Shown: positions 2,209 through 62,392 of the stretch, in pieces
Position numbering within the stretch: the first letter of the stretch is position 1
Layout of the letters: each line of letters begins with the position of its first letter
From: Mobula hypostoma
Lineage: Eukaryota
Length of the DNA stretch: 64,000 nucleotides
NCBI RefSeq assembly: GCF_963921235.1
Contig: NC_086108.1
Location: 49,478,001-49,542,000 of the forward strand
Reading direction: 5' to 3'
Notes under the pieces: model-generated
Told to the model about the DNA's origin: nothing
Seen by the model: only the letters and a program-made list of their open reading frames with translations
Databases searched by the model: none
Made by a program: the position numbers and the translations under genes

Positions 2209-2918
2209 TCATCATCATCATAATGCTCTATGTCTGGATGACTTGGGTAATCATGGTCGACATAACCATGGTTATTCTTGGCAAAGTTTTCTACGGAAGT
2301 GGCTTGCCAGTGCCTTCTTCTGGGCAGTGTCTTTACAAGACAGATGACCGCAGCCATTATCAAAGCTCTTCAGAGATCATAAACACAAAATGACGGAGGA
2401 ACTCAGCAGGCCAGGCAGCATCTATAGGAACGATGTTTCAGGCTGAGACCCTTCGTCAGGTTGGCCTGCTGAATTCCTCCAGACTTTTGTATGTATCATT
2501 TTCTTTTCCAGCTTCTGCAGATTTTCCTCTGTTTGTGAGTCCTGATAAAGGGTCTTAGCCTGAAACTTCGACTGTTTACTCTTTTCCATAGATGCTGCCT
2601 GGCCTGCCGAGTTCCTCCAGCATTTTGTGTGTGTGGCTTCAGTTTCCAGAATCTGCAGATTTTCTCTTGATTTTACTCTTCAGAGATTGTCTGCCTGGCT
2701 TCAGTGGTGACATAACCAGGACTGAATGATATAACCAGGGTGATACGCACCAGCTGCTCATACGATCATCCACCATCTGCTCCCATAGTTACATATAACC
2801 GTGATCGGGGCTCTAAGCAGGTGCTACACTTTTCCCAAGGGTGACCTGCAGGCCAGTGGAGGGAAGGAGTGCCTGACATCTCCTTTGGTAGAAACACATC
2901 TTCACCCCACCACCCATC
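2209..2918 (-). mobile_element. RTE-related SINE/non-autonomous element with (CAT)n tail, interrupted by a Penelope-derived cassette
   Basis: Reverse complement matches 25755-26085; carries the RTE/BovB-type 3' motif gaaggc..tggcaa.ccact. Confidence 0.7.
2378..2675. mobile_element. Penelope pLTR-derived cassette with two degenerate hammerhead motifs in opposite orientation
   Basis: 12-bp TSD ctcttcagagat at 2366-2377 and 2676-2687 (single copy in the uninterrupted element near 25925); hammerhead-like cores at 2431-2460 (-) and 2538-2574 (+, core mutated to CTGATAA). Confidence 0.8.
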
Positions 2919-9674: not shown

Positions 9675-12548
9675 AATCATAGTATTTGGATCCACGTTGG
9701 AAGAACATGAAGTGAGGCTGCTGAAGGTGCTGGGTCACCTGAAAGCTGAAGGGTTAAAACTTTCCCTGGACAAGTGCCAGTTCTGCCAAACAACTGTTAG
9801 CTATGTTGGGCACATAGTCTCACGGGATAGAGTACTTACAGATCAAGCTTAGATAGAGGCGGTTACCACTTGGCCAAGACCTCAGACTGTGAGCGTTCTG
9901 TGTTCGTTCCTTGGGTTATGTGGTTACCATCAGAGGTTCGTGAAGGGTTACATGAAAGTGAGTCACTAGTTGAATCAGCTTCTGTGCAGTTACCCTCCCT
10001 TGGAGAAGAAAGGGAGGGGTAAAAAGGACAGGAGGGTGGAGAGTATCTTAGCCCATTGGAGCCCTTTGGACCAAGGTGGGATAAAAAACGTGAGGAGGCC
10101 TTTCAGTCTCTGAAGAGGCTGCTGACTCAGGCATAGGTGCTGGCTTTTGCGGACCCTTGATTGCCGTATGTACTGCACATGGATGCCAGCCGAGAGGCTT
10201 TAGGAGGCATCCTGTATCAGATTCAGAGCACCGGGTTGAGGCCTGTTGCGTTTGTCAGCCGGAGTCTGTCATCCTCCGAGAAAAACTATCCCACGCACAA
10301 GTTGGAATTCCTGGCGTTGAAATGGGCGGTGGTGGACAAGCTGAGTGACTGTCTCTACGGGGCCAAGTTTGAGGTGAGGACGGACAACAACCCCCTAACT
10401 TATATCCTGACCTCGACGAAACTGGATGCCATAGGCCGTCGGTGGTTGGTGACATTGTCTGCCTATGATTTCAGCCTGAAGTACCGGCCGGGAAGCAGAA
10501 ACATTGATGTTGATGCTTTGTCCCGACAGGCGCATAAGGGACTGGTCAGGGACGAGGACTGGGAGAGTGTTCCTGCCCCAGGGGTGAAGGCCATGTGTCA
10601 GTTTGCCATCACCGTGAAGGCAGAGGGAAAGGAAGGGCAGAATCGAGCGGTGAATCAATTGGGAGCTTCTGATGACGCCATTCCCCAAGTTTACTGTAAC
10701 TTGACTGCTCTGAAGACAAATCAGCTGCCAGAATTGAGTTTGGGGGAGGTGGCAGCTGCTCAGCGAGGTGATCCGGGCAGCGATTGAAAAGCTTCAGGCA
10801 GAGAAGGTGAAACATACGTCGGTGCCTCCATTACTGTGAGAATGGCCTAGGTTGGAGTTGAGGAACCAGATCTTATACCAGGTCACGTCACCCCCAGACT
10901 GACCTTGGCATTGCCAGCTGGCTCGGCCCAAGAAGATTCGGAAGATTGCGTTGAAGTCACTTCGTGATGATTCTGGAAATTTGGGGGTAGAGAAGACCTT
11001 TGGATTACTCAGAGACTGGGTTTACTGGCCCCAGATGAATCGGAGGTCGAAGAATACTGCAAGCTGCATACGGACGAAGACACTGCCTACGCGGGCAGCT
11101 CCCTTGTCCCACTTGCAGAGGGTGGGGCCTCTGGATCTGGTGTGTATGGATTTCCCGTCAATAGAACCTGATGCCAGCAACATGGCGAATGTCTTAGTCA
11201 TCACGGACCACTACACCAGATATGTTCAAGCTTTTCCTACCAAGGATCAGAGGGCGTCTACGGTGGCAAAAGTGTTATGGGAGAAGTACTTCATCTATCA
11301 TGGCCTTCCCAGGTGGATACATAGTGATCAGGGACAGAATTCCGAGAGCAGACTCATCCATGAGGTACTGGCCATGCTTGGAGTCGAGAAGTCGAGAACA
11401 TCACCCTATCACCCGCAGGGTGATACCCAGCCAGAGAAGCTTTAATCGGACCTTGCTAGACATTCTCGGGACCCTGGAGATCAGCAAGAAGAGCAAGTGG
11501 AGTCAACATATTGGGCACCTGGTTCATTGTTACAACTGTACCCAAAATGAAGCTACTGGGTACTCGCCATATTATCTGATGTTTGGGCGCGAGGTTGAGG
11601 TTGCCCAATGACCTTTGTTTTGGGACTGACAACAGTGACTTACCACCGAAGATTTATCTGAAGTATGTTTCTGATATGAGGAGAGAGCTGAAAAGGGCTT
11701 ATGAATTAGCTGGGGTCGCGGCTGCCAGGCAGAATCAAGGAAATAAGAGGAGGTACGTACAAAAGGTGAGGTTTTTCCATCTCCTGCTGGGAGACCGAGT
11801 CCTCATAAGGAATTTGGGGCTACCTGGAAAGCACAAGTTGGCAGACCGTTGGGCAACTACGCCCTATGTGGTGTAGAGTCAGATGCCAAACCTGCCAGTT
11901 TTCCAGGTGAAACCAGAGGATGGGAATGGCCTTGTCAAGATTCTCCATTGGAACCACCTGCTGCCCCTGGGACAAGAGGTGCAGGTAGACCCAGAGCCCA
12001 ACTTGGAGCCTACATCTAATAAGAGGACTCTGCAGACATGCGAAGTGACTTCAGGGCCCATAGCAGGCGAAGTTAGGCTGGCCCCCACCCTGAGAGGGAT
12101 ACTGATTCGGAGGATGAGGACCTGGATGTGTAGTATATGCCGCCTTTCACTAACTCCCCATTGATTGAGGAAGAGACTCCCACTGAGTCAGGTGAAGTGG
12201 GGTGAGGCTATCTGTGGGCAGGTTGGGTTCAGCAGGGAGGAAGCAGGGCTTGGCCACGGGACAGAGGGGTCCAAGTTGCAGGTGGGCACGAGTGATAGGT
12301 CGGGGGAGGCCTTGCCAGGTAGACCAGAAGTATCCTCAGTAGTGTCTGATCCTGAAGAATTAGGTGAGGGGATGTGGAGATCTCAGAGAATTCGGAGACC
12401 ACCGGATAGGCTGGCTTACATAGCACCAGGGGAGCAGAGTGTGATTCCTACCGTTTTGGGGAGCTATGTCACTGCCTTGTGCACGTGGATTGGACTTTGT
12501 GTTTTGCAGGAAGGGTTGGTGAATTATCTCAGCATCATGAGGACATGA
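9675..12548 (+). pseudogene. pol: Gypsy pol remnant: RT C-terminus, RNase H, integrase and C-terminal tail
   Basis: IIVFGSTLEEH..LKLSLDKCQF (RT); LHMDAS..LGGILYQ..NYPTHKLEFLALKWAV..TDNNPL (RNase H); LVCMDF..ITDHYTRY..IHSDQG..PYHPQGD..GYSPYYLMFGR (integrase); broken by several frameshifts and stops. Confidence 0.93.
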
Positions 12549-22190: not shown

Positions 22191-23415
22191 GAAAAAGAAA
22201 CAAATTCTTATGTTTAATTCAACATTCAATTTATGATTGTCAATAAACAAGCATGGAGTTAATGAATCAACTCTGTCTTGCAAAAATTCTGAATTTTTAT
22301 CCTATGTGGCCACTTAATAAGAATACAGGTACATTTCTCCAGAAGTATCTAGCTTGATAAATTTCAGAATTGATATATTTCCTATTCTCTAAAAATGATC
22401 ACACTTCTAAAAGATTTCACCATTTTTAAACTTTTCTACCTCTAGTACAGTTTTGTAATGGAAGCACTGAGCAGCGCAGTGGTGCTGCTGGGGGAAGATG
22501 CTCTTCGGCAGTCTAAGGAAGTTAGCGCACAGCCACTGAGCTCTGAGTGTGATTTTAGCTTTAAGAATATTTTCACTTTAGTGATCAAAGTCTGAAGGAA
22601 TCTGAATACTTCAGCAATGGATCCAAACTGCTGGCCTTCACACCTTACCTCCATGCTCTCAGGTAGTCATAGAGCAGTACAGGACAGAAACAGGCCCATT
22701 AGCCCTTCTAGTCTGTGCCAAACTATTATTCTGCCAAAATTCTGACTGTTGAAAGTCCAATCCATGCATTTGAATCTTCTAGATTTGGCTTCTATTGAGC
22801 CAATACAGTTTCTCCAGTCTTCAAATTCATGTAGTTTGATTTCTCGGAAGCTCTACACACCTATTACCCTGCTGCCACTTGGCCCACTCTCTCAATCTCC
22901 CTCCTCATTGTTCTTCTCTCTTTACCTTGAATACATTTCTCCACTCAGTTCCATTCTGTCACTTCTCCTGATTCATTCACCAAAGGTCAGCACATGTTCT
23001 TTCTCCCCTGCTCAAGGGAATGATTTAATGTTAAAGACATTGCACATGTACAAGGAGCTGGTGTTCATTCAACAGCTTTTTAAAATTACTCTCTTCCTGT
23101 AACTGGCACAGAATTTCTTAAGCACTGCCAAAAAGAAGTCTACCTTCCTTTCTGACTGAAGATAATTGTAGGATCCTGTGGTACATTTGTCTTTACCTGT
23201 TTGGTCTGCAGCTGAAAAAAATATTTAAAGCCTGTTAAAATCACGAGCTCGTATTAAACTGCAAAATAAAAGTGAGTTTTGGTTAATTGGCCATCAGTAT
23301 TTCCTGTAGAGATCCCATATTTCATATTAATACTAGAAAAATAAAAGCTCAATTGAGATAGTCATTGAATTTTGCTATTCATTCTATCTTCCCATTGCAA
23401 ACCAATCTAAACTGA

Positions 23416-23870
23416 TACTTTATACTTTATTGTCGCCAAACAATTGATACTAGAACGTACAATCATCACAGCGATATTTGATTCTGCGCTTCCCACTCCC
23501 TGGATTACAAATATTAAATATATAAAATATTAAAAATAGTAAAAATTAGTAAATATTAAAAATTTAAATTATAAATCATAAATAGAAAATAGAAAAATGG
23601 AAAGTAAGGCTGTGCAAAAAAACCAAGAGGCAGGTCCGGATATTTGGAGGGTACAGCCCAGATCCGGGTCAGGATCCGTTCAGCAGTCTTATCACAGTTG
23701 GAAAGAAGCTGTTCCCGAATCTGGACGTACGAGTCTTCAAGCTCCTGAGCATTCTCCCGAAGGGAAGAGGGATGAAAAGTGTGTTTGGCTGGGTGGATCG
23801 TGTCCTTAACTATCCTGGCAGCACTGCTCCGACAGCGTGCGGTGTAAAGTGAGTCCAAGGACGGAAGGAC
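23416..23870 (-). mobile_element. Young Rex1/Babar 3' end
   Basis: LPSLDSLYTARCRSSAARIVKDTIHPA; (taaagta)n tail; near-identical copy at 55761-56081. Confidence 0.85.
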
Positions 23871-25754: not shown

Positions 25755-26085
25755 GCCTGCAGGTCACCCTTGGATAAGGTGTAGCACCTGCTTAGCCTCC
25801 CAACCCCCACCCAGATCCCGGATCAGGGGTATGTGAAGCCATGGGAGCAGATGGTGGATGGTCGTATGAGCAGCTGGTGCTTATCACAAGACCTGGTTAT
25901 GTGACCACTGATGCCAGGCAGGCAATCTCTGAAGAGAATTGATAATGGCTGGGGTCACCCATCTTGTAAAGACTCTGCCCAGAAAAAGGCGATGGCAAAC
26001 CACTTCTGTAGAAAAATTTGCCAAGGACAATCACAGTCATGGAAAGACCATGATCGCTCATGTCATACAACATGGCATGTAATGG
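25755..26085 (+). mobile_element. RTE-related SINE/non-autonomous element
   Basis: Same family as 2209-2918; gaaaaaggcgatggcaaaccacttctg motif. Confidence 0.75.
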
Positions 26086-33797: not shown

Positions 33798-34307
33798 ATG
33801 ACTAACTGGTACAGGAGAGGTGTGATCAGAGAACTTAATGCATTCTGTTATTGCTTTTCCCTTACACTGCTTCAATCTACTGATGCAATGAAACTGTCTG
33901 TATGAATGGCATGCAAAAGAAAGTTTTTCATTATACATCGTGTCTGATGAAGTCAAACTCATTTCTCCCATACTAATCTGGTAGTTAGGAGAAATGAGTC
34001 TAATTTCATCGGAAATGGTCACAATACTGGGGAACTGTTCTGTTGAATTGGGCTTTTCTTGAATTTGGCTGGTACCGTGTCTGAGTGAATCAAATAACCA
34101 GAGGTACTGGTATGGTTTTAAATTGAATACTGTGTTGGGGGAGGTAGGAGTAAGGAGTTTTATAAAATTAAGATTTTTTTGGATCCACAGGCAGAGGCAG
34201 TAGTGAAGGAATATTTCAGACCTGCTATTTGTTAGGTGAATTGACTACGGTAAAATGATTCCCTTTGTGGACGAGTGCCAGGAGAATCAGGGTGATGTGT
34301 GAGGGCA

Positions 34308-35190
34308 AACACAAGCAAATCTGCAGATGCTGGAAATTCAAGCAACACACACAAAATGCTGGTGAATGCAGCAGGTCAAGCAGCATCTATAGGAAGAGGT
34401 GCAGACGACGTTTTGGGCCGAGAACCTTCGTCAGGACTAATTGAAAGAAGAGATAGTAAGAGATTTGAAAGTGGCGGGGGGGGGGAGATCTGAAATGATA
34501 GGAGAAGACAGGAGGGGGAGGGATGGAGATAAGAGCTGGACAGGTGATTGGCAAAAGGGATACAAGGCTGGAGAAGGGAGAGAATCATGGGATGGGAGGC
34601 CTAGGGAGAGAGAAAGGGGGAGGGGAGCCCAGAGGAAGATGGGGAGCAGGCAAAGAGTTATAGTGAGAAGGACAGAGAGAGAAAAAAAGGGGGAAAAAAT
34701 AATAATAAACAAATAAATAAGGGATGGGGTAAGAAGGGGAGGAGGGGCATTAACGGAGGTTAGAGAAGTCAATGTTCATGTTATCAGGTTGGAGGCTACC
34801 CAGATGGAATATAAGTTGGAATTGTTCCTCCAACCTGAATGTGGCTTCATCTTGACAGTAGAGGAGGCCGTGGATAGACATATCAGAATGGGAATGGGAC
34901 GTGAAATTAAAATGTGTGGCCGCTGGGAGATCCTGCTTTCTCTGGCGGACAGAGCATAGGTGTTCAGCGAAACGGTCTACCAACCTGCGTCGGGTCTCGC
35001 CAATATATAAAAGGCCGCACCGGGAGCACTGGATGCAGTATATTACCCCAGCTGACTCACAGGTGAAGTGTCGCCTCACCTGGAAGGACTATCTGGGGCC
35101 CTGAATGGTGGTGTGGGAGGAAGTGTAAGGGCATGTGTAACACTTGTTCTGCTTACAAGGATAAGTGCCGGGAGGGAGGTCGGTGGGAAT
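34308..35190 (-). mobile_element. Penelope-like element, 5'-truncated, with GIY-YIG endonuclease and pLTR
   Basis: GIY-YIG ORF plus a pyrimidine-rich 3' region and a hammerhead-like motif at 34401-34440 (GAAA mutated to AAAA). Confidence 0.9.
34750..35079 (-). pseudogene. Penelope GIY-YIG endonuclease domain (truncated ORF)
   Basis: FTCESAGVIYCIQCSRCGLLYIGETRRRLVDRFAEH...ATHFN..SHS...RLEEQ..LIFHLGSLQPDNMNIDF. Confidence 0.9.
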
Positions 35191-35546
35191 AGGTTACAGA
35201 GGGCACATGGCAGAGAATGAAAGATCTTGAGCTAGCATAGACTCGATGGACTAAATGGTCTCCTTCTCTGTTGTAATATATGAAAATTCCAAGAAATTGT
35301 CTAGAGTGTGGCTAAAAGAAAGCAGTAAATCTGAAGATTAAGGAAATATCAGTATTCAGCAAAGGAGGACCCAGGAATTGATAAGGGAATAAAAAGCAGA
35401 AGAAGATGGCAGACCCAAAGACCCTAGCGTAAGAGTTTTGCACAGTACTGTAGTTGACAAGCTTCCATGAACTAAACAACTTCGTTAAAGTTGCTTGTTT
35501 TAAAACAAGCCTTTACACTGCACCTCTTAAGCAGTAATAAACCAGG

Positions 35547-35655
35547 ATTATAGATCAATCCTGAGGAAAGGGTTCGGCTCGAAACGGTGACTGTTTGTTC
35601 TTTTCCATTGATGCTGTCTGACCTGCTGAGTTCCTCCAGTACTTTGTGTCAGTTA
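35547..35655 (+). mobile_element. Solo Penelope pLTR/hammerhead fragment with TSD
   Basis: 12-bp TSD taataaaccagg at 35535-35546 and 35656-35667; degenerate core CTGAGGA...GAAACGGT. Confidence 0.75.
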
Positions 35656-37773
35656 TAATAAACCAGGTATTGAGGGTTACATCCTACTCTACAGACAGAG
35701 CATCTGCTATCTACGGAGTCTTTATACAAAGCTGCACTATGGACAATACTTTGTTTTAACTTCAAACGTGATTACTGCTTGCCATTTACATTTTAAGAAC
35801 TGAAGACTGGCTCCTGTTTATGACTAGGAGCTAAAAATGTCACTTGGAAATTTACTTCTGACCTTACAAGTGATGGCTGCTGTGTTTAGAAAGTGAACTT
35901 GGCAAAACATGAGGTCCCCTGGCCCTTTGCACTGGGATCTCATAAATTGAATAAATAACACCTGCATGACTCACTATCATTATAAATTTAAATCTGGCCC
36001 AATGGATTAAAGTCCAGAGCTGATTTCACCCTCGTCTACTGCATACTTCATTTGTAATGTAATACAAATTACAGACTGGGAACTTATCGGAAGTTACACA
36101 ATGTCTGCGAATTTCCTTTCATGTAATCTATCTGCTGACATGCAAGTGGACAGAGACATGCTCTGCAGATGGCACTGTCACACATTGCAGAAGACAACCT
36201 ACTTCACCAGGCCCTAGGCAGTGAAATTTCACGCTGGGAACTAAATCTCACTGGAGCTCCTGTAAATAATATACTCACATGCCTCACACTCAGAGCACAC
36301 ATTCCACTACTGTTCATGACCCTTACCCCTGCTGTCCCTAATATCCCCCACCTGACCATGCCCCTCTCCACCACCCATCTTTTGACCTACCAATCTGCCA
36401 ACTCTGTCTCCTATAACAAGCACTTCATGGCTCCTGACAGCCAACATTCAACCAAATCTAACAGATCTCACCAACCTGCCTGTCTTTCTCCCAATGTATT
36501 ACCAGATTCCTTTACCAAAAATCCTGGGCTCAAACCCACCACTCATTCCAAGTTTTTTACCTTAAGCCCTAGGAACTCTCTTTCCATCAAATCACTCCAC
36601 TCCTGTTCTAGAGCTATCCAACTTGCCAATTTCTTTTGCCTGTTTGACTTGGTGAAGCACACAAAGGAAGGTTGAATGTCCTTTCCTAACACAAGACATG
36701 ATCAACACCACATGATAAACTGCACCTTGTATATTAATAAAATTTATTAACAACTATTGATAACTATATGACTATTGACCGAAGCCCCACTATGCACTAA
36801 CACTTTAATCACATCTAAACAGAGCAATTACATTTCTGGACAACTATTACCCTGCTTGCCAACTGTTGAAGATGCCAATGGATTTTAACACAAACCACTG
36901 AATGATCTTTACAATGTTTACAGATCAGACCTGTGTGACTTCAACCCAGAGCAAAAAGGAGCCACCTATGTTGTTCGTGTTATTTTAGAGTTCAACAGTT
37001 AAACTTCTCATGTTGAAACAAAATTGAGGTTGGTTTAAACCAACACGGCACTCCTTTCTGGACAGCTGTTCAAATAGAAGCTTTTGATCTTAGGAGAGTG
37101 CATTTTAGGGGCTGCAACTGAAACAGTGAGAGGATGACACAGCTAGTTAGCACTCACTGTTTCCTGTGAACAGCTTTTTAGTTGTGTTCTATTAGGTGAC
37201 CTGAAGACGTTTTTAGAAAAGCAGATACTTTTAAGTAAGGCACCTCCCAATATTTACAGCTAACCTTGAAAAGATACATGTCATCTGCGTGGGCAAGTGA
37301 CAGAAAATGGAAGTTTACTTCAGACAGAAAAAATAGAGAGAGTTCATCCAAGTTCTCAGTACCCCTACCAGCCCAGCCTGTCCATCACACGTGAAGATGA
37401 CAGACTGAAGAATGATTCCAATCTGCAACAAAGCATATTTACCTCATGTTTACTGCTCAGCTCTTGTTAGAGTTCCTTCAAATATCATGTGGATTATTAA
37501 AACACTGGAAATAGTTAGGCAGATTATTTCAGCCCGCATATTATCATAACTTGTATTGTGTAGATACTGTTCTCAATCTTAGTACTTTGACCGGGGCTTG
37601 AGAATACACTCACTCAGTGGACTGCATTTTGGGAGGGTGAATCAGAGGTTTATCTTAATCAAAGCTGTCAATTAGTCATGCCAGAGTTATCTGTTGCAAG
37701 ATTTTTGCACTATCTATTCTGTTTTATTTCTTACATCCTACACAAACATGAGGAGTAAAAATCTTTATGTTAC

Positions 37774-38293
37774 ATAGAAACATAGAAAAACGACAGCACA
37801 ATACAGGCCCTCCATCCACAATTCTGTGCCGAACATGTACTTACTTTAGAAATTACCTAAGGTTACCCATAGCCCTCTGTTTTTCTGAGCTGCATGTACC
37901 TGTCCAGGAGTCTCTTAAAAGACCCTATCGTATCCACCTCCACCACCATTGCTGGCAGCCCATTCCATGCACTCACCACTCTCTGTGTAAAAAACTTACT
38001 CCTGACATCTCGCAAACACAAGGAATTCTGCAGATGCTGGAAATTCAAGCAACACACACGTTTCGGGCCAAGACCCTTCGTCATATCCTGACGAAGGGTC
38101 TCGGCCCAAAACGTCAACTGTACCTCTTCCTAGAGATGCTGCCTGGCCTGCTGCATTCACCAGCAACCTTGATGTGTGTCCCCTGACATCTCCTCTGTAC
38201 CTACTTCCAAGCACCTTAAAACTGTGTCCTCCCTTGTTAGCCATTTCAGCCATGGGAAGAAGCCTCTGACTATCCACACGATCAATGCCTCAA
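37774..38293 (-). mobile_element. CR1 3' end inserted in a Rex1 tail
   Basis: (acatagaa)n tail; 7-bp TSD atgttac at 37767-37773 and 38294-38300; same family as 29535-29870. Confidence 0.85.
38012..38181. mobile_element. Penelope pLTR/hammerhead cassette with two inverted motifs
   Basis: 11-bp TSD cctgacatctc at 38001-38011 and 38182-38192; cores at about 38059-38085 (-) and 38087-38120 (+). Confidence 0.85.
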
Positions 38294-45720: not shown

Positions 45721-48098
45721 CGAGTCTTACTACAGCTTCCACATTTCCATCTCAATCTCTCCCTTGTCTCTGTCTACTCCATGGCAGCCATGATGTCTGG
45801 CGAAATCTGGAGCGTACTTTTAAGGGTGACAAATTTTGTTGGTTGCCACTCAAAGTATTGGGAGTTGCTTGGTTAAAGGAAGTCCCATCAGGAATCATGC
45901 AGGTCCACTCTCAAATGCTTGCTTCTGAAACATGTATAATTCTGCAGGAAGACCTTCAGCCATAGTGAAATCAGGAATGCTTTGTTTGCTTCTCTAGTGC
46001 AGCTTGTAAATTACCACAATGGTGCTTCCAACAAGATTTTGGCCAAGTCCAAAATCTTCCATGAGGAGGCTGTTCAGGCATCAGTCTCAAATGTTATTAT
46101 GCAACAAAAAAGCCAAAATCTAATTGCTAGGAAAATTTGATTCACTAGTGTTAGTCGAGTGATTAAATATTGTCAGGTAAACTGAGGAGTTCTCTCCTAT
46201 TCTTCATCAGGTCAAAGGGAAACAAGATATTACCAAAAAGAGAAAGGAAAGCATGATGAAACATTTGCTTGACCTCAAATAATTCTGTAGCTTTGAGATT
46301 TTGGGAAAGGAATGTGTTAAAGTAAGAATCTGAGCAATGATTTGAACAGATTGATGATGTGGAGAAAAGAACAAATTGGTATTAATATAGTACTCTGTAA
46401 CCTTCACATTTTAGGAAAGTTTTGACAAGTAAGTTCTCTTCAATATGTTTAAAGGAAAAGAGAGGGTAACACAATATTACACACCCCCACACACAGCTGG
46501 TTCAGATAACTGGTATTCAGCGTGGATCATCTGGTTAATAAACCGTGGAGCTTGCTGAGAATCATTGTGGGCGTTTAGGAAATAAATTACTGGGGTCATG
46601 TTTATTTTCAATTTCCTTAACAATATAACTTCTTTTCCCCCTCAAAGTTCATCCATTCCCAGGGTCCAGCCATTTTGGTATTAAATAGGAGTTTGACTGG
46701 CGAATGGGTCCCGCCTCAGAACATGACAGCAGCAGGAAGAGGAGTAGGTGCCCAAACGAGCACTCAAGCCTGTTGCTATAAACAGGTTTGATGGCATAAA
46801 TGAGCTGAGGACACCATCTGGGGCTATGTCAGAGAGCTACAGTGTCTCCTCTGCAGCCAGAGATCTAGTGCTCCAATCTACTACTACCGAGCAGATCTGA
46901 CGTACAAAACAGCATCTCATTGGCATCGTCACTGCGTCAAGAAGAAGATCCCTTTCCTCATCACAGCTTACTCACATGAGAGCTCCTGATGTGGCTGGGA
47001 CAAGCCCCAAGATTTGCGGTGCAAAGAAGGAATTGGAGGTTCATACCCTAAATGAAAGAAAAACGAAGATTCAAACCTATAGCTAAGTTGCTTAATTAAA
47101 GCATTCTTTCCCAGGCCAATTACTAGTAGTCAATCAATTGGAAGTGAGGTGAGACTGATGACTCCCAGTAAACTGTCATATAGCACACTAAGTAAATTTA
47201 ACCTGTAAACAACTTAATCTATTTAACGTATGAACATATTTTAAAAATCAGACAAGACAAACAACAGAAACTTCTCCCAATAAAAAAATATTTCATTATG
47301 ATTCGCTTAAATTAATGAAATCAATCTCAGACAGGTACAGCAGTTTATTTATCAAACATGTTTGAGAGGAGAGTTACTCAGTTATTTCCAATGTGCCTGG
47401 ACTTATCATTGTCACCGTACACAGCCATCTTGGTTCCTTTAATGTGGAAGATGAAGCATGTTCAATGCTAGAGAGAGTCCACACTGATGGATGGTAACTG
47501 AGTCTGCTGTAATGACAAGTATTTGGGCAAGCAAGTTGACAGAGTTCTCTGATTGAAGACAATTTACAATTAATGTGATCAGTTCTACTCACTGAGGTAA
47601 AACAGAAAATAAATAAAACAAGATGATCGATATTGCATCATAAATCAGCTAGCAATTAGGTCTACATAGTTTATGGTTGTTACTGGAGTTTGAAGGTTAA
47701 ATTACTATCTTGAATTCTCGGCAGCCTTGCACTTATTTTTATGCTCTATATTACATATTTAGTACTGATAGTTTTACAGTAATAGGATAGGATTGTGTGT
47801 TTCATCATATGCTGGCTCTGTCTGGTCACATATACACTGACAGTTCTCTCAAAGTCATTATGCCTAATATCATTCAACTTGTGTGAATAACTACTTATGA
47901 TAGTACTAGGAGATAAGGCTTACAGAAAAATCATTCATGGAAATAATACAACCAGAACACGTCATGTTGCAATCATTCAATGACTGGTTGTTACCACCAT
48001 GTAACATTCATCTCCTAGTCAGACGGTTTTGGTTTCAAGTCTTACTCTGAAGTTGCTTAATTAAGGCAACTTGGGATTTAAGACTTCAAACCAAAATA

Positions 48099-49672: not shown

Positions 49673-50292
49673 TAACATGGCCAACACTCAGTGCACTATC
49701 AAAGCTCCATCTTTAGGTGCAAAATATCTCAGAGACACACTGTTGAAGAATAGAAGGCAAGTTATCCAGAGTGTCATAAATCCATCAGCCAATATCAACC
49801 ACCCGACCAACTGGTTATTATCACTGCTGTTTGTAATGCTGGGTGCAGATAAGCTGTTGTATTTTCTACAACTGTGAAATTCCTACAAATTTCATGACCT
49901 CTGCTGGTGATATTAAACCTGATTTTGATTCTGAAAACTGTGACTTCAGAAGTACTTCACTTGCTGTAAGGAGCTATGAGAAGTCCCAAACCTGTGGAAA
50001 AAGCTACAGTATATAAATGGAAGTCTTTCTCTTCAGAGATTAGATATTGTAGAAAGCTCTATTAGTTCTTGATGACTTAATTTTAAATTAATATGGCTCA
50101 CTCATACATCAAAGTCAAATTCAGAGTGCTGTAAAGAATGGAGCTCACACACAAACCAGAGTAGCTCACATCATCATAAAATCTCACTGACAAAAAGCAC
50201 ACAATTTCCCTCAAACCAGGAACAAGGTGTCTGGGTATAATGTGGCAAAACTCAAGGAACCTAATTCAGATATTAAAACTAATTTAGTATCT

Positions 50293-52915
50293 GAATTAGC
50301 TTCTTTGATTAGCATACCCAAACCGAAAGCTATGGATGAACCAGGAGATCTGTGGTCTGCTGAGGGCTAGGTTTGTAGTTTTCAAGACCAGTGATCCAGA
50401 ACCACACAAGAGGTCTAGGTATGACCTACGGAAGGCTATTCTAAGAGTGAAGAAACAATTCTGATTGTATTTAGAGACAGAATTGGATGCAAGTTTGCTC
50501 TGGCAGGGTTTGCAGGCCATTACTTCCTACAAGACGAAACCTAACATCATGAATGGCTGTGTTGCTTCACTCCTAAATGGGTTCAATGCCTTTTACACAT
50601 ACTTTGATAGGGAGAATAAAACTACAGCTGTGTGAATCCCTGCAGCATCTGGTGACCCTGTCATCTCTGTCCTAGAGGCAGGTGTCAGAACATCTTTCAA
50701 GAGGATGAATGCCAGCAAGATGCCAGCCCTGGATGATGTACCTGGTAGGGCTCTGAAAACATACAGAAACCAACCGGCGCGAGTGTTCAAGGACATCTTC
50801 AGTCAATCACTACTGCAGTCAGAGGTTCCCAATTGCTTCAAAAGGGTGTTAATCATGCCAGTGCCCAAGAAAAGCAGGGTGAGCTGCCTCAAAGTTCAAA
50901 GTTCAATGTAAATTTATTATCAAAGTACGTAGATGTCACCACATACAACCCTGAGATTCATTTTCTTGCAGGCAATCACAGTAAATACAAGCAACACAAT
51001 AGAATTATTGAAAGACAACAACCAACAGGGCAGACAACAACCAATGTGCAAAAATAAAACACTATGAAAATACAAAAAGAGAGAAAAAAAAATAATGTTA
51101 ATAAATAAATAAGTAATAAATATGAAGAACATGATATGGAGAGCCCTTGAAAGTGAGTCCAATTCAGTGGGAACAGCTCAGTGATGGGGCGAGTGAAGTT
51201 ATCCTCTCTGGTCCCAGCGCCAGATGATTGAGGGGTAATAGCTGTTACTGAACAAGGTAGTCTAGGTCCTGAGGCTCCTGTACCTTCATCCTGGTGGCAA
51301 CAGTGAGAAGAGAGCATGGCCTGGATGGTGGGTGATGTGATTTTCCGTGACAGACTGGGCCATATCCATTACTTTTTAGGTATTTTTCATACCAGGCTGA
51401 GATCCAAACAGTCAGTTTACCCTCTATCGAATCTTGCAAACTTCTAAGAAAGTAGAGGTGGCGCTGTGCTTTCTTCATAATGGCACTTATGCGCTGGGCT
51501 CAGGACAGACCCTCTGAAACGAGAAAACCGAGGAATTTGAAGTTGCTGGCCCTCTCCACCTCTGATCCCCTGATGACTGATTGACTCATGGACCACTGGT
51601 TTCCTCCTGCTATAGACAATAATCAGCTGCTTGGTCTTACTGGCATGGAATGAGAGGGTGCTGTTGTGACAGCACTCAGCCAGATTTTCAATCTCTCTCC
51701 TATATGCTAATTCATCACCACCCTTGATTCAGCCTGTGGCAGTGGTGTCGATGATTATCACCCAGTTGTGCTGACATCTACTGCAATGAAGTGCGTTGAG
51801 AAATTGGTCATGGCCGGGATCAAGCCCTGCCTGAGCAAGGATCTGGACCCACTGCATTTGCCTAGCACCACTGTAGATCTACAGTGGATGCAACTTCACT
51901 GGTTTGCCCCTCGGCCTTGGACCACTTGAACAACATCGGGCTGCATTTTATTGATTATGGCTCAGCATACAGTTCTAATCAACAAACTTCAAAGCCTGGG
52001 CCTCTGTCACTCCTTTTGACTTCCTCATTGGAAGACCACAGTCAGTCCAGATCAGAAATACATCACCACCTTGCTGACAATCAATCCGGTGCACCTCCAG
52101 GATCTGTGCTTAGCCTACTGCCCATCTCGCTCTATAATCATGACTGTGTGGGCAGGCACAGCTCAAGTGCCATCCATAAATCTGCTGGCAAGACAACTAT
52201 TGTTGGCAGAATTTCAGATGGTGATAAGGAAACGTACAGGAGTGAGATCGATCAGCTGGTTGAGTGATGTCGCAACAACAACCTTGCACTCAGTTTCAGT
52301 AAGACCAAGGAATTGATTGTGGACTTCAGGAAGTGGAAGTCAAGGGAACACACACCAGTCCTTATCGGGGGATTAACAGTGGAAGGGGTTTCAAATTCAC
52401 AGCTTCAAGTTCCTGGGTGTCACATCTGAAGATCTATCCTGAGCCCAACATATTGATGCAATTACAAAGAAGGCACAACAGCTGCTCCTTTATACTTGGT
52501 TAGGAATTTGAGGAGATTTGGTATGTCACTAAAGACTCTAGCAATTTTTTTGCAGATGTATTGTGGAGAGCATCCTAACAGGTTGCATCACTGTCTGGTA
52601 TGGAGGGCCAGCTGCACAGGATCTGAAAAAGCTGCAGAAGGTTCAAACTCAGCCAGCTTCATCATGGGCACTGTCCACGCCCCCCCACCCCCCAGTAACT
52701 AGGAAACCTTCAAAAGGCGATGCCTCAAAAGGGTGGAATCCATCATTACAGACCTCCATCACCCTAGACATGCCTTCTTCCTCACATTGCTACCATTAGG
52801 GAGGAGGTACAGGAGCCCGAAGACACACACTCAGCATTTAGGAACAGTTTTTTCCCTTCTGCCATCAGATTTCTGAATGGACAATGAACCAGCTCATGGA
52901 CACTACCTCACTGTA
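50293..52915 (+). mobile_element. Long Rex1/Babar LINE fragment split by an antisense Rex1 insertion
   Basis: PVPKKSRVSCL (50860-50890) continues as DYHPVVLTSTAMKCVEKLV at 51752; RT and C-terminal motifs continue to about 52880. Confidence 0.88.
50893..51750 (-). mobile_element. Rex1/Babar 3' portion nested antisense in another Rex1
   Basis: MKKAQRHLYFLRSL; (ctttgaa)n tail at 50890-50906. Confidence 0.85.
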
Positions 52916-55524: not shown

Positions 55525-56270
55525 GTTAAAGCTATTTAAGGTTGTTTAATATCACTTCCAGTACACAAGTCTAAAGGAGAACAAAATAATTATTACTCTG
55601 GGTCTGATGCGGCACTAAAAATACACCATAAGTTAAGGAACATAATAACAAAAAGAGTAATAAAAACACAATAAATATCAATACATAAGATAGCTTATAT
55701 ACATATAGTAGAACAATAATATGCCTATAAAGTGCTGCTAGGCACAGGAGCGTCTGTACATACTTTATACTTTATTGTCGCCAAACAATTGATACTAGAA
55801 CGTACAATCATCACAGTGATATTTGATGCTGTGCTTCCCACTCCCTGGATTACAAATATTAAGTATTAAAACTAGTAAAAATTAGTAAATATTAAAAATT
55901 TAAATTATAAATCATAAATAGAAAATAGAAAAATGGAAAGTAAGGTAGTGCAAAAAAACCAAGAGGCAGGTCCAGATATTTGGAGGGTACGGCCCAGATC
56001 CGGGTCAGGATCATTTCAGCAGTCTTATCACAGTTGGAAAGAAGCTGACCCCAAATCTGGCCGTATGAGTCTTCAAGCTCCTACTTTATCATTTCCTGTC
56101 AGTCATCTTGTGATCCACATAAGATGACTGACAGGAAATGATAAAGTATTGGTGGTGGGGGATGTGGATGAGAGGGGTGTGTGGAGATGTTGATCAGCCT
56201 TACTGCTCGGGGAAAGTATCCGTTCTTGTGTTTGGAGGTCCTGATGTAGATGGGGACCTTGCATTCTCAA
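55525..56270 (-). mobile_element. Rex1-type 3' end hosting a younger Rex1 3' end (55761-56081)
   Basis: Host reads gtctgtacata|agatgactgacagg across the insertion; the insert is near-identical to 23416-23747. Confidence 0.7.
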
Positions 56271-56448
56271 TGTTAATTGTATTCTGGGCCTAGATGGCAT
56301 CGCTTGACACTGCACTGTGTGGATAACAGAAACAAGCCTGCATTGTATCACAAACAACAGGAATTCTGCAGATGCTGGAAATTCAAGCAACACACATAAA
56401 AGTTGCTGGTGAACGCAGCAGGCCAGGCAGCAACTCTAGGAAGAGGTG

Positions 56449-56485
56449 CAGTCGACGTTTCAGGCCGAGACTCTTCGTCAGGACC
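56449..56485 (-). ncRNA. Minimal type I hammerhead motif, antisense copy
   Basis: Reverse complement ggtcCTGACGAagagtctcggcctGAAACGTCgactg; one stem II substitution. Confidence 0.65.
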
Positions 56486-56494
56486 AACTCAGTT

Positions 56495-56531
56495 AGTCCT
56501 GACGAAGGGTCTCGGCCTGAAACGTCGACTG
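56495..56531 (+). ncRNA. Minimal type I hammerhead ribozyme motif (copy 1)
   Basis: agtc-CTGACGA(56499-56505)-AGGgtctcggCCT-GAAA(56519-56522)-CGTC-gact; stem I agtc/gact; predicted cleavage after 56526. Confidence 0.8.
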
Positions 56532-56582
56532 CACCTCTTCCTAGAGATGCTGCCTGGCCTGCTGCGTTTACGAGCATCAGTT

Positions 56583-56619
56583 AGTCCTGACGAAGGGTCT
56601 CGGCCTGAAACGTCGACTG
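56583..56619 (+). ncRNA. Minimal type I hammerhead ribozyme motif (copy 2)
   Basis: Identical core 88 nt downstream; predicted cleavage after 56614. Confidence 0.8.
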
Positions 56620-56670
56620 CACCTCTTCCTAGAGATGCTGCCTGGCCTGCTGCGTTCACGAGCATCAGTT

Positions 56671-56707
56671 AGTCCTGACGAAGGGTCTCGGCCTGAAACG
56701 TCGACGG
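56671..56707 (+). ncRNA. Minimal type I hammerhead ribozyme motif (copy 3)
   Basis: Identical core; stem I shortened by gactg to gacgg; predicted cleavage after 56702. Confidence 0.72.
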
Positions 56708-57814
56708 CACCTCTTCCTAGAGATGCTGCCTGGCCTGCTGCGTTCACCAGCAACTTTTATGTGTGTTGCATTGTATCACAAGCTCTTTTTAATGAGTAAT
56801 TTCCTAAGCTACTCTCAATTGCAATAAAACACACCCCAGGGTTCAATATGCAGCATGCATTTCATTTCTATGTGTTTCACTTTTATGCTTTAACTAACCC
56901 ATTTGAAAAAGGAAAGAAATCAAATGCATTTTCAGGACCTTGTAAGGTATCGCAATTGGTGGAAACGTACAAGATTTCTAACCACCGATATTGAGTTGGG
57001 GTTCACCGTAGGAGGATGGTCAGATCTGATAACGTATTACGTGAAGTTCTGTCACCGCGATTTTTGGAGCACAATAAATGAATTGTTACCGTTTTTCTTA
57101 AGCACAGAATGCCTCACATCGTTCTTTTTGCAAAAATCTACAACCTTAGCAAAGGTGTTTTCAAATAATGAAGCATCTCTCTATTCAACTACAACAGTGT
57201 CTAATGATACTAATGACAGACTGAAACTACAGACAAATCCATTCTCATTCTAATCTTTCTCTTCACCCCCACTTCTTCCTCAGTCCACAATCCCTCCTGA
57301 TATACAAGCTGCAGGTGGTTTAAATACTGTTCCTGCCTCACCTCATCACAAACCAGTTGTGTGTTAGAGATACTTGAAAGTAAAGAATATTGGGATGACA
57401 GGTATCACTTGAAGACATTCTGTCACGCAATATAACATTCAGAGACTCGTTTCCATTGCTGATACTGTATAGAATTTAGAAATTTAGAAATTACATCACT
57501 TTGCAGAGCACCTGCAGTCAGTCCACAGGAGTGACCCAAAGCTTGTAGCTTGTAGTTGCTTGTCACTTTAATTCTTCTATTCGTGTATTTTTGCACGTTT
57601 TATTCCATATCCATACTTTAACCTTTAACTTTATTTTTATGTAACTCTTTATGAATGTTGAATGTTGTTTTTTGTTGCACGTCATGTCTTGAGGAATACA
57701 CCACACCAAATTCCTGATCCATATATATGGCGAAAAAGTTTGATTCTTGATTCATCATCGCACTTGGAACTCTCTGTCTGTGATCTCCTGCACTGTTACA
57801 ATGGAATCCAGTGA

Positions 57815-58934: not shown

Positions 58935-59899
58935 TGTCACAATCGGGCGCTGGGAACGGACCCAAATGCAAGACACAGACACTGAAGCACAAGGAACAGG
59001 ACTTAACTAGAGTAGGGACGTGACAGGATACAGACAAGGAGCAGGGACAAGAACACAGACTTGGGCTAGGGCATGGACAAGACAGGGGGTCTCAAGGCTC
59101 GGGATAAGTCAGGCCGTTCTGCAGTTGCCCTGTTGGGGGGGTCCTGTCTTGTCTTGTCCTCACCTCCGTGGGGGGAGTCAGACTGTTTTGCCATTGCCCT
59201 GCGGGAGGATCTGTCTTGGCTTGTCCTCACCTCTGTTGGGTAAGTCCAGCCATTCTGCCATTACCCAACAGGTGGATTTGTCCCACCTTGATGTGGAGGT
59301 AAAGTTGAGTCCCGGCTTGTCTATGGATGGGTCCTGGCTCTTTGTCTATGTACTGTCCTGTCTCATGTTGGTGTTGTGTTAAAGATGAGTCCCGGCTTTT
59401 CGAAGGATAGTCCCAGCTCTATGTTGTTGTACAGTTCCCAGTGTGTCTCCGAGCTCTAGCCTCCAAGTTATCAGCCTCCGCATTCCGGGCCTTGAGGCCC
59501 GAACAGCCTGACTTACCCCACAGAGGCAAGGACAAGAAGAGACAAACACCAAAGAAAAACAGACAGCTCCATCTCTGCTTCAGGGTTGCTCCAAGTCACA
59601 GTTACAGCCAGCAACCTCTGCTGGCTACAGAAACAGCTGGATCCCTACCTAGCTCAGAGTGGCTGACAGCCACTCAGCAGGCCCAGGAAACAGCCAAATC
59701 CATACCGCAAAGACAGCTCTGACTACCCACAGCAAGGCTCCATGAAGCAATGGTTCTCCAACGCAGCCTAAAGATGGCAAATGGCCACACTAGCCTTCCA
59801 CTGGCAGGTTGCTCCCAGGGGATCTTGACAAGACAAACCAGCAGCCCACACACAACCCCAAGGCTACTTATATTCCAAGCCCCAAGATGGGAATCACCT
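58935..59899 (-). mobile_element. Gypsy-type LTR (solo, truncated) with internal short tandem repeats
   Basis: Terminal tgtcac at 58935; TATA-like atataag on - near 59867-59873; imperfect repeats at 59115-59300 and 59308-59440; truncated by Penelope at cacct microhomology. Confidence 0.6.
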
Positions 59900-60359
59900 T
59901 ATATTCCGTCTGGGTAGCCTCCAACTTGATGGCATGAACATTGACTTCTCAAACTTCTGCTAATGCCCTACCTCCCCCTCGTACCCCATGCATTATTTAT
60001 TTATATACACACATTCTTTTTCTCTCACTCTCCTTTTTCTCCCTCTGTCCCTCTCACTATACTCCTTGCCCATCCTCTGGGCTTACCCCCCTCCCCTTTT
60101 CTTTCTCCCTAGGCCTCCTGTCCCATGATCCTCTCATATCCCTTTTGCCAATCATCCGTCCAGCTCTTGGCTCCATCCCTCCCCCTCCCGTCTTCTCCTA
60201 TCATTTCGGATCTCCCCCTCCCCTTCCCACTTTCAAATCTCTTACTAACTCTTCCTTCAGTTAGTCCTGATGAAGGGTCTCGGCCCAAAACGTTGACTGT
60301 ACCTCTTCCTAGAGATGCTGCCTGGCCTGCTGCGTTCACCAGCAACTTTTATGTGTGTT
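59895..60359 (+). mobile_element. Penelope 3' end with pLTR and hammerhead motif (60261-60299)
   Basis: HLIFRLGSLQLDGMNIDFSNF* then close match to the reverse complement of 34330-34810; core CTGATGA...AAAACGTT (GAAA mutated). Confidence 0.88.
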
Positions 60360-62392
60360 CGCTTGGAAGGACTGTTTTGGACCCTGAATAGCGGTGAGGG
60401 AGTAGGTGTGGGGGAAGATGAAACATTTGGGGAAGTAGGATCTGATTTAATTGCAGTTTATGCCAGAAGTGGCCTGCGTTGCCTGCCAGGCAAATTGCTA
60501 TCAGTGACATACAGCATTCCGAAAGCAGCAATCTACACAAAGACACTCACTTCTTATGCCTATTTTCCTTCAGAAGAGAGAGTGTTAGTGATCTTCACAA
60601 TGCAACCAAGAACGGTAAACAGTAAGATGTCATGAATATAATCAGCTCCAACCTGATGCATAAATATGCATCGCAGTGGGTGAGGCAAAACCACCAGCAA
60701 TGCTGCTCTTGTTCTTGCCTGGGATGGTCTTTAAGTGACAATGAGGAGATCTTTTCTGAATTACACATATTTCAGATGTTCTTACTGCTTGATTGTCGAC
60801 AGGAGAAATGCTCCCTATCATAAATAGGGGAAATACGTCTCCTTTCAGAGAGCCCTGGCACCCTCTTCATTTTCCCTCTTCAAGCAGGCTGTCCTGTTCA
60901 GTTTGACCTCTGCCTCTCCCAGCTACAAAAGGTGTGTCTACAGCTACTACACTCAAGCCTGACAGCATCAGATTTGTGCAGAAGCTTCAAGTTAAGACAA
61001 ACTTCTTCAGCATCTGGCACATTACTCACTGCACCAAATATTACTGGCGTCATGAAATCCGCCAGAGGGAATCAGTCAGCAACTGAAAGTTAAAGGTGCC
61101 TTTAAGTAATGGTGTGTGTATGTGTGTAGCAAGAATAAAGAAGCGAATTTGCTGGAGTGTTAAATTCTATCAAGTTGGAGTTTACTCATTAACACTCACG
61201 TTGATACTCCACAATTAGGGAGTTCAAGTGAGTTTTGTACCAGTTAGGTATCTAGACAAAAATGCACATGATAACTAACTGAAAGTTCTCAGCCATGGTT
61301 TGCTGGTAATCTTAGGAACCTAATAAAAATGTTTTGAGTCCAGACTTGCAAAACTGAGTGAAACCTGTTCTTCACACAATGATGTGGCTTCATCTGTTCT
61401 ACATGAGGCTCAAATTATTATGTTGACATTTCAAAACTGGAAATTTTAAATATACTAGGAATTTTAAAAGATGCAGATATTAACTTGTCCACTTTGTCAC
61501 TTTAGTAGAGTGACACTGACCCTGACAACTTTATGAATTCTCTTCCATTTAACAGCTAATATTAATTTGAGAAGAAGCAAAAGTCAGATGTCTCAGTATT
61601 ACAGTGCAGTAAAGGGAATTAAAGAGGCATGAGAGAGGAGTTGGCCAAAACTGATTGGAAAAGAACACTGGCAAGAGTGTCGGCAAAGCAGCAATGGCTG
61701 GAATTTCTGGGAACAATTTGGAAGTTGCAGGATACATACATGCCAAAGAGAAATATGTATTTTAAAGGCAGGATGACACAACCTTGGCTGACAAGAAAAA
61801 TGATAGGCAACATCAAAGCCAATGTGAGGGCATATAATAGAGCACAAGAAGTGGGAAGTTAGAGGATTGGGAAGCTTTTAAAAACCCAACAGATGGCAAC
61901 TAAAAAGTCACAAAGTAGGAAATGATGGAATATGAAGGAAAGCTAGCCAATAATATTAAAGAGGATACCAAAAGTTTCTTCAGATATATAAAGAGTAAAA
62001 GAGAGGTGAGGGTAGATATACGACCATTGGAAAATGGTGCTGGCAAGGTAGTTATGGGGACCAGGGAAATGTTGATGAACTGAATAAATATTTTGCATCA
62101 GACTTCACTGTGGAAGACATTACCAATATGTCGGAAGTTCAAGATTGGCAGAGTGTGTGGTTGCCATTACTAGAGTGAAGGTTCTTGGGAAACTGAACAG
62201 TCTAAAGGTCGATAAGCACCTGTACCAGATGGTATACAGTCCAGGGTTCTGCAAGAGGTGGCTGAAGAGATCGTGGAGGCATTAGTAATGATCTTTAAGA
62301 ACCAATTGATTCTGGCATGGTTACAGAGAAATGGAAAATTTCAAATGGCTCTGCACTCTTCAAGGAGGGAGAGAGGCAGAAGAAAGGAAATT

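Follow-up and report, generated by a model that had tools for sequence, protein, structure and literature searches.

A tripled minimal-hammerhead unit in what is probably a stump insertion of a Neptune-type Penelope-like element

The window, that is, the whole stretch of DNA analysed (64,000 nucleotides), carries at 56339-56781 a cassette built from a short unit with a hammerhead motif. A tandem array was located by TRF at 56489-56752 (period 88, 3.0 copies, 98% matches, score 507), in agreement with the preliminary description, which had reported three near-identical 88-nt units. The fourth copy that it placed on the opposite strand was recovered as an antisense arm (56387-56489), 96% complementary over 103 nt to 56667-56769, representing unit 3 with the bases that continue it. 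The cassette is flanked by a direct repeat of 15 bp, exact in its two copies at 56339 and 56767. In the window, 23 15-mers recur at a spacing of 100-1000 bp, the flanking repeat among them; the others stem mostly from two larger repeats. The parts of the cassette are as follows (pLTR, pseudo-LTR; TSD, target-site duplication).

56339-56353, plus strand: left copy of the 15-bp direct repeat; the TSD part is likeliest 56339-56350, and the last 3 nt also fit the end of the element tail.
56351-56386, minus strand: Penelope 'tail' of 36 nt, on the left arm only; this tail is also found at the end of the copies at 34306 and 38013.
56387-56489, minus strand: inverted pLTR arm, from unit offset +2, with 3 private substitutions.
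About 56485-56450, minus strand: hammerhead of the inverted arm, with an A.C mismatch in stem II.
56489-56576, plus strand: unit 1 (pLTR offsets 0-87), hammerhead at 56495-56530, nominal cut after 56526; derived G at offset 83 and private T at offset 80.
56577-56664, plus strand: unit 2, hammerhead at 56583-56618, nominal cut after 56614; the offset-83 G is common with unit 1.
56665-56752, plus strand: unit 3, hammerhead at 56671-56706, nominal cut after 56702; one stem I pair is lost to a private T>G at 56706 (T in about 98% of contig depth).
56753-56769, plus strand: unrepeated 3' end of the pLTR, with the short (tail-less) end point at 56766-56769.
56767-56781, plus strand: right copy of the 15-bp direct repeat; the first 3 nt also fit the element.

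The three nominal cut positions had been placed correctly in the preliminary description, and its reading of the cassette as a single TSD-flanked insertion fits both the direct repeat and the Penelope architecture set out below. Two of its statements on the cassette ends were narrowed. The 15-bp flanking repeat is exact, but it overlaps element sequence by 3 nt per end, so the true duplication measures 9-15 bp; most likely it is 12 bp, and the TSDs of sister insertions measure 12, 12 and 13 bp. The inverted arm does make the cassette largely palindromic, yet the structure is asymmetric, the 36-nt tail at 56351-56386 being carried by the left arm and absent from the right. Both outer ends of the cassette are element 3' ends, one tailed and the other tail-less.

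All 20 ancestral CpGs (five per copy in four copies) were intact, CpG observed/expected was 0.74 in the cassette versus 0.28 in the window, and the TSD copies were identical to each other. The age of the insertion, given earlier as young, is young in a relative sense only, the right junction also being found in a DNA run labelled as another organism. In the best-matching run one contig spans 56744-57400 with 0 differences; in the run labelled as another organism one contig spans 56745-57400 with 9 letter differences and 1 gap in 656. These right-junction contigs contain about 23 element-side letters each, below the 31-letter bridging threshold, and therefore suggest, at most, that the insertion is also present in the second organism. 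The four cassette copies differ from one another at six sites, and CpG decay was 0 of 20 despite these six non-CpG differences (56354-56766). This combination may reflect an unmethylated locus; alternatively, some differences may come from different template RNAs or from copying errors, the numbers being too small to decide.

The catalytic boxes CUGACGA, GAAA and CGUC are present in all four cassette copies. A 26-nt motif was matched 10 times in the window and 0 times in 100 shuffles; the hammerhead motif count is far above chance. Cores are complete, with a 5-pair stem I, in units 1 and 2, where the boxes of the minimal hammerhead (min-HHR), stems I and II and a loopless palindromic stem III are fully present. 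The other two of the four cassette motifs each have a damaged stem pair, A.G in stem I of unit 3 and A.C in stem II of the antisense copy. The core described earlier for every copy thus holds for the boxes, and the stem I AGUC/GACU that went with it holds for units 1 and 2 only. Stem II, which had been given as AGG/CCU, is more aptly taken as GGGU/GCCU, with the A following A9 bulged out, since other copies in the window yield a G10.1-C11.1 pair in the same register. That conserved pair is absent from the cassette: position 11.1 is U in all four copies and a conserved C in three other window copies, and the cassette copies have G.U (A-U in the other register). The variant table has no row at 56694 (11.1), though window copies vary there; this absence was given no weight. 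The assignment to a minimal type I hammerhead of a Penelope pLTR with palindromic ACGU stem III was upheld. No Rfam hammerhead match was obtained in the window at gathering scores, nor in 56300-56850 at E≤10, as expected for a motif without helix III. Rfam matches to microRNA hairpins and sRNAs at E≤10 were discarded as generic; they were below the cut-offs and mostly over the palindrome.

The family was identified from other copies in the window. BLAST of one arm against the window gave 13 matches, nine of them outside the cassette, and two longer copies were found to run upstream of the hammerhead, via a pyrimidine-rich stretch, into a coding end.

34306-35193, minus strand: longer copy, with pyrimidine-rich UTR, hammerhead pLTR and tail.
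35193-35092, minus strand: Zn-finger linker C-x4-CxxC, in the longer copy 34306-35193.
35088-34753, minus strand: GIY-YIG endonuclease end, 112 aa (Pfam PF01541, 25.4 bits; cut-off 22.6).
59895-60359, plus strand: second longer copy, with end of the coding region, UTR, hammerhead pLTR and short end.

The pLTR of the copy at 34306-35193 is about 88% identical to the cassette units. Its GIY-YIG stretch was matched at E≤1e-10 by seven of 49 longer candidate proteins (66-88% identical), all seven named from two ray genera. Homologues P0001 and P0003, 88% and 79% identical over the domain, carry a YIDD motif upstream, which we take to be a reverse-transcriptase motif; no Pfam reverse-transcriptase family was reported for these two proteins at E≤0.01. 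Evidence for a reverse transcriptase comes from homologous proteins only, the gene being absent from the window. In the available text of PMC8557442, a CX2-5CxxC Zn-finger linker with a C-terminal GIY-YIG domain defines the Neptune and Nematis clades. The linker alone does not separate the two, and Neptune is favoured by occurrence in a vertebrate. Because linker and GIY-YIG domain occur in longer copies, the unit was assigned to a Neptune-type 3' pseudo-LTR; judged from these sequence relationships, the 3' pLTR of a Neptune-type Penelope-like element opens with the 88-nt unit, the element being that of a cartilaginous fish, likely a ray. The 3' end of the 59895-60359 copy is adjoined by 66 nt of inverted element coding sequence (60364-60429), and a tandem with a 67-bp period (59107-59282, 2.3 copies, 77% matches) lies about 600 bp upstream of that longer copy.

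Contigs matching 56665-57400 numbered 50,840 and 36,345 in two DNA runs. Summed depth, which is not a copy number, was 6-26 million on the unit and 13-30 over the unique flank, and contig depth on 56665-57400 was concentrated in the first 100-125 bases. The Neptune-type family is thus very abundant.

Penelope elements insert with an inverted 5'-truncated copy, a one-sided tail of 30-40 bp and a TSD of 8-10 bp, according to the available parts of PMC8557442 and PMC3846280. The cassette shows an inverted truncated partner (103 nt), a one-sided 36-nt tail and a duplication of 9-15 bp; by these structural tests it reads as an insertion of a Penelope-like element, and the view that a Penelope enzyme had made it agrees with the published signature. 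For the purified anole element, the accessible sections of PMC11167929 report that it nicks and extends both strands, that two internal reverse-transcription start sites bound the tail, and that uncleaved RNA is the main template. The cut sites of the cassette are intact, which indicates that here too uncleaved RNA was copied. The window has three more short insertions of the Neptune-type family with flanking TSDs, two of them (2378-2675 and 38012-38179) with inverted arms and empty paralogous sites.

38012-38179, plus strand: sister mini-insertion, with tailed inverted arm and direct arm, 13-bp TSD (12/13 identical), empty site near 29760.
2378-2675, plus strand: older sister mini-insertion, with inverted arm and two head-to-tail direct pieces, 12-bp TSD, empty site near 25930.
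35547-35655, plus strand: older single-arm mini-insertion, 12-bp TSD (35535-35546 / 35656-35667).

In the 38012 insertion, the inverted arm passes at 38058-38059 from offset 36, which is one base short of the cut site, to offset 92, an internal deletion that short direct matches at its ends may explain.

The seven short hammerhead-bearing arms in the window all start within a narrow interval (offsets 0, 2, 6, 8, 8, 9 and 11). Another three copies at least extend into the UTR, and a fragment that lacks the hammerhead begins at offset 65. In the cassette, the element base at the inversion centre is also the one on which each of the three units begins. The six bases that open the unit fit an initiator consensus, a motif that is common in the window (110 and 124 sites per strand). 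For Drosophila Penelope, the available text of PMC2377424 describes an internal promoter that has an initiator. We infer that transcription starts at the 5' base of the unit, giving a discrete RNA 5' end.

Other features of the window were recorded by sequence comparison and by eye. At 56082-56148 there is a 67-bp near-perfect palindrome with 31-nt arms, no other copy in the window and no evident TSD; it is situated at the end of a repeat (55760-56082) that is itself 92% identical to 23415-23746. Imperfect palindromes at 48027-48096 (83%) and 50252-50308 (81% self-complementary) are unrelated to the Penelope unit. Two stop-free stretches at 10161-11442 resemble, on our reading, RNase H and integrase sequence of a Gypsy-type LTR retroelement, and other long stop-free stretches are reminiscent of LINE remnants. 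No host exon was identified in the window by this reading.

In the array, offset 87 is joined to offset 0, 50 nt from the cut site (after offset 37). No microhomology was found at this 88-nt junction; this fits an end-of-template jump, without proving one, and microhomology-driven slippage was rejected as a cause. Units 1 and 2 carry a derived G at offset 83, which is four bases ahead of the junction; unit 3, the antisense arm and three other window copies lack it, which implies common descent of the two junctions from a single one. Past its 88 nt, unit 3 goes on for 14-17 unrepeated bases, so copying began on linear element RNA. Cleavage cannot have created the junction: a circle born of cleavage can have one only by inheritance from a tandem that was already there.

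Ten of the 12 listed contig joints with intervening letters go backwards; a further 26 joints lie outside the listing. Their periods are 37, 37, 40, 40, 47, 49, 55, 75, 75 and 90 nt, their depths about 1.4 to 4.3 times that of the flank, and seven of the ten land at offsets 0-7, two at the edge of the matched stretch. The 88-nt junction is not among these ten listed joints; a single-locus junction is expected below the listed depths, contigs of high-copy repeats fragment, and the contig comparison covered unit 3 and the right flank, so that the triplication is not confirmed by contigs. The varied periods among the listed joints argue against a high-copy 88-nt family, and answer to the random unit lengths that the preliminary description had named as refuting its own reading (37-90 nt among the listed joints, none 88). 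A joint with a 75-nt period, from 56744 to 56671, occurs in both DNA runs at about 3-4 times flank depth and possibly marks another small array common to two organisms. In run X5, a joint from 56702 to 56665 leaves from exactly the cut site, its landing point being about 9 nt upstream of where the unit starts; it resembles a jump onto a cleaved RNA end and, being one of ten listed rows, is within chance. Departures at the cut site were likewise dismissed as a signal, since two of the ten listed joints start at 56702, which is within chance, and one of the two may simply be normal continuation. For R2, template jumping is on record in the accessible part of PMC2718515; no report of it for a Penelope enzyme was found in the literature searched.

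Folding was predicted using ViennaRNA. Units 1 and 2 can be drawn together as a nested double hammerhead; in all ten constrained folds (dimer, trimer and whole cassette) it was 20.7-22.6 kcal/mol above the ensemble, and two rods scored -21.6 against -6.9 for the bare double hammerhead. The preferred fold of each unit is a rod in which the core is paired with the cut-site strand, and in a transcript of the whole cassette one unit is predicted to be locked in a duplex of about 100 bp. These nearest-neighbour energies ignore tertiary contacts of the core and come without an active-hammerhead control, and are to be taken as a caution rather than as proof. When six stretches were folded without constraint, their stability did not exceed that of shuffles (z -0.27 to +0.59). 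In vitro, dimers and trimers of minimal hammerheads cleave weakly (available text of PMC4209133), and eight of nine predicted Xenopus retrozyme dimers showed no cleavage in the available part of preprint 10.64898/2026.07.22.740005. As far as the accessible sections of PMC11167929 go, the anole Penelope hammerhead cleaves only with the element's protein added, is dispensable for insertion and leaves no RNA-seq reads ending at the cut site. Since anole cleavage needs protein, poor folding of naked RNA does not exclude activity. In two runs, guessed to be RNA, the repeat is covered and 56790-56964 is not, which says nothing on expression either way. From the folding models, the cassette ribozyme is probably inactive. 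The release of 88-nt monomers proposed earlier is not supported, two of the four motifs being damaged and the active fold being predicted as strongly unfavourable.

The following course of events, drawn in part from published Penelope biochemistry, would account for the cassette. The element protein would nick the two strands about 12 bp apart and prime reverse transcription on each. Starts at two sites 36 nt apart would produce one tailed and one tail-less arm, and each copy would run 100-140 nt, as far as a discrete 5' end that the uncleaved RNA has immediately ahead of the hammerhead. As both copies would stop at this end, the arms would meet head to head. At the RNA 5' end the enzyme would re-enter the template once, 88 nt downstream, giving a dimer, and a later slip or unequal crossover at the DNA level would turn two units into three. 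A transcript of the result is predicted to fold each unit into an inactive rod, with one unit trapped in a duplex of about 100 bp, so that little or no 88-nt product is to be expected. We consider it probable that the cassette is a stump insertion of a Neptune-type pLTR, that a single copying slip likely tripled its direct arm and that its ribozyme is probably inactive. Within this explanation, one re-entry followed by one duplication at the DNA level has about an even chance of being correct; slippage entirely after insertion, or two separate re-entries, is a less favoured way of arriving at three units. Whether the tandem was built by run-off and re-entry with no ensuing activity is likewise close to evenly balanced. 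Later local amplification is proposed for pLTR tandems in the available part of preprint 10.64898/2026.07.22.740005; here, the one 5' base shared by the three units and the inversion centre points to a route at the time of insertion.

Under a different explanation, which we hold to be unlikely, an array already present at a donor locus was transcribed into a linear multimer ending in a normal pLTR and was copied whole, making the cassette a member of a small mobile tandem family, or nascent retrozyme lineage. This would yield the two identical junctions at once, and it accords with the proposed origin of non-LTR retrozymes from pLTRs, with consensus lengths from 51 bp (preprint 10.64898/2026.07.22.740005, available part); the 75-nt joint seen in both DNA runs at 3-4 times flank depth indicates that repeated family junctions exist. 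It requires, however, a second coincidence to start unit 1 exactly on the boundary at the inversion centre. The 88-nt joint is absent among the best-supported rows listed, and TRF and BLAST detected no other 88-nt array in the window, which also counts against a donor-locus array. Less likely again is the origin that had been suggested from a circle, in which double hammerheads paired through ACGU release 88-nt monomers, these are circularised, and the trimer is reverse-transcribed from the circle. Catalytic cores are complete in all units; the weak cleavage of minimal-hammerhead dimers and trimers, together with a circular Penelope intermediate proposed in the same available text (PMC4209133), and protein-assisted cleavage of the anole element (PMC11167929, available sections) speak in its favour. 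Yet a circle made by cleavage needs the junction beforehand, and the junction lies 50 nt from the cut. Unit 3, moreover, lacks the offset-83 G and extends into 14-17 nt foreign to an 88-nt circle, and there is no reason why copying of a circle should stop on a unit boundary. The predicted fold, about 21 kcal/mol unfavourable, the eight uncleaved of nine Xenopus dimers and the anole RNA-seq data point the same way as these objections.

We regard as equally doubtful that the cassette is a working 88-nt retrozyme. Just as improbable is a retrozyme at its birth, in which run-off and re-entry built the tandem and units 1 and 2 are cut as a protein-chaperoned dimer, releasing an 88-nt RNA that, if real, would be among the smallest self-cleaving circles known in an animal. 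Least probable of all is that the triplication is an assembly error around the palindrome. Inverted and tandem structures are known to trouble assemblies (PMC8557442, available text), and no array-spanning reads were seen; against this, the unit-specific letters (T80 in unit 1, G41 in unit 3, G83 in units 1 and 2) are unexpected from a duplicated collapse, and the right junction and flank (56744-57400) are matched by a contig with 0 differences. The stump insertion thus remains the preferred reading, and the cassette probably amounts to a dead insertion of the ordinary sort rather than a circular-RNA element that cuts itself. As one of very many Penelope pLTR stumps, of a kind already described, it matters little by itself. 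The cassette offers a compact natural case of how a pLTR may become a tandem retrozyme, and the 176-nt stretch of units 1-2 is a ready substrate for dimer cleavage.

Whether the cassette is called a retrozyme depends on the definition used. By the rule given in the available part of preprint 10.64898/2026.07.22.740005, a non-LTR retrozyme consists of at least two consecutive tandem units with complete hammerhead motifs; lengths there range from 51 to 972 bp, and one chondrichthyan is included. By TRF and motif reading units 1-3 form such a tandem, and the cassette would probably count as a non-LTR retrozyme in that sense. The supplementary tables of the preprint may list the Neptune-type family or similar arrays. 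Classical retrozymes are described in the available text of PMC7229834 as units of 150-450 bp, below 50% GC, with canonical hammerheads and abundant linear and circular RNAs; an 88-nt unit with a minimal motif falls outside this 2020 description (about 150-450 bp, canonical hammerhead). The preliminary description had seen a distinct retrozyme-like element of 88 nt. This is not supported, as the array continues into unrepeated element sequence and the listed periods are varied.

Three known systems resemble the cassette. With min-HHRs it shares the CUGANGA and GAAA boxes, an extra base that separates position 9 from 10.1, a short stem I and a palindromic 15.2-16.2 without loop 3, presumed to act as a dimer. 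It differs from them in having G.U and not the conserved G-C at 10.1-11.1, in the broken stem pair of two of the four copies, and in spacing, its motifs being 88 nt apart whereas described min-HHR pairs are about 3 kb apart in tandem and 100-700 bp apart on opposite strands. Animal non-LTR retrozymes (Cervera and De la Pena 2020, PMC7229834; Li, Clavereau and Pollet 2026; available parts of both) are similar in being non-coding tandems with a hammerhead in each unit, in the long TSD and in pLTR ancestry; in contrast to these, the cassette has an 88-nt unit with a minimal motif, is embedded in pLTR ends and is without sign of a family or RNA of its own. With EN+ Neptune insertions, as presented in the available sections of Arkhipova et al. 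(2013, PMC3846280), Craig et al. (2021, PMC8557442) and Frangieh et al. (2024, PMC11167929), it has in common the pLTR hammerhead, the inverted 5'-truncated partner, the head-to-head palindromic centre, the tail of 30-40 bp on one arm, the short TSD and partial tandems, and the longer copies add the C-terminal GIY-YIG with Zn-finger linker. Unlike those insertions, the cassette comprises only the 100-140-nt end of a pLTR, and its direct arm is a perfect 88-nt triplication in which all units start at the same base.
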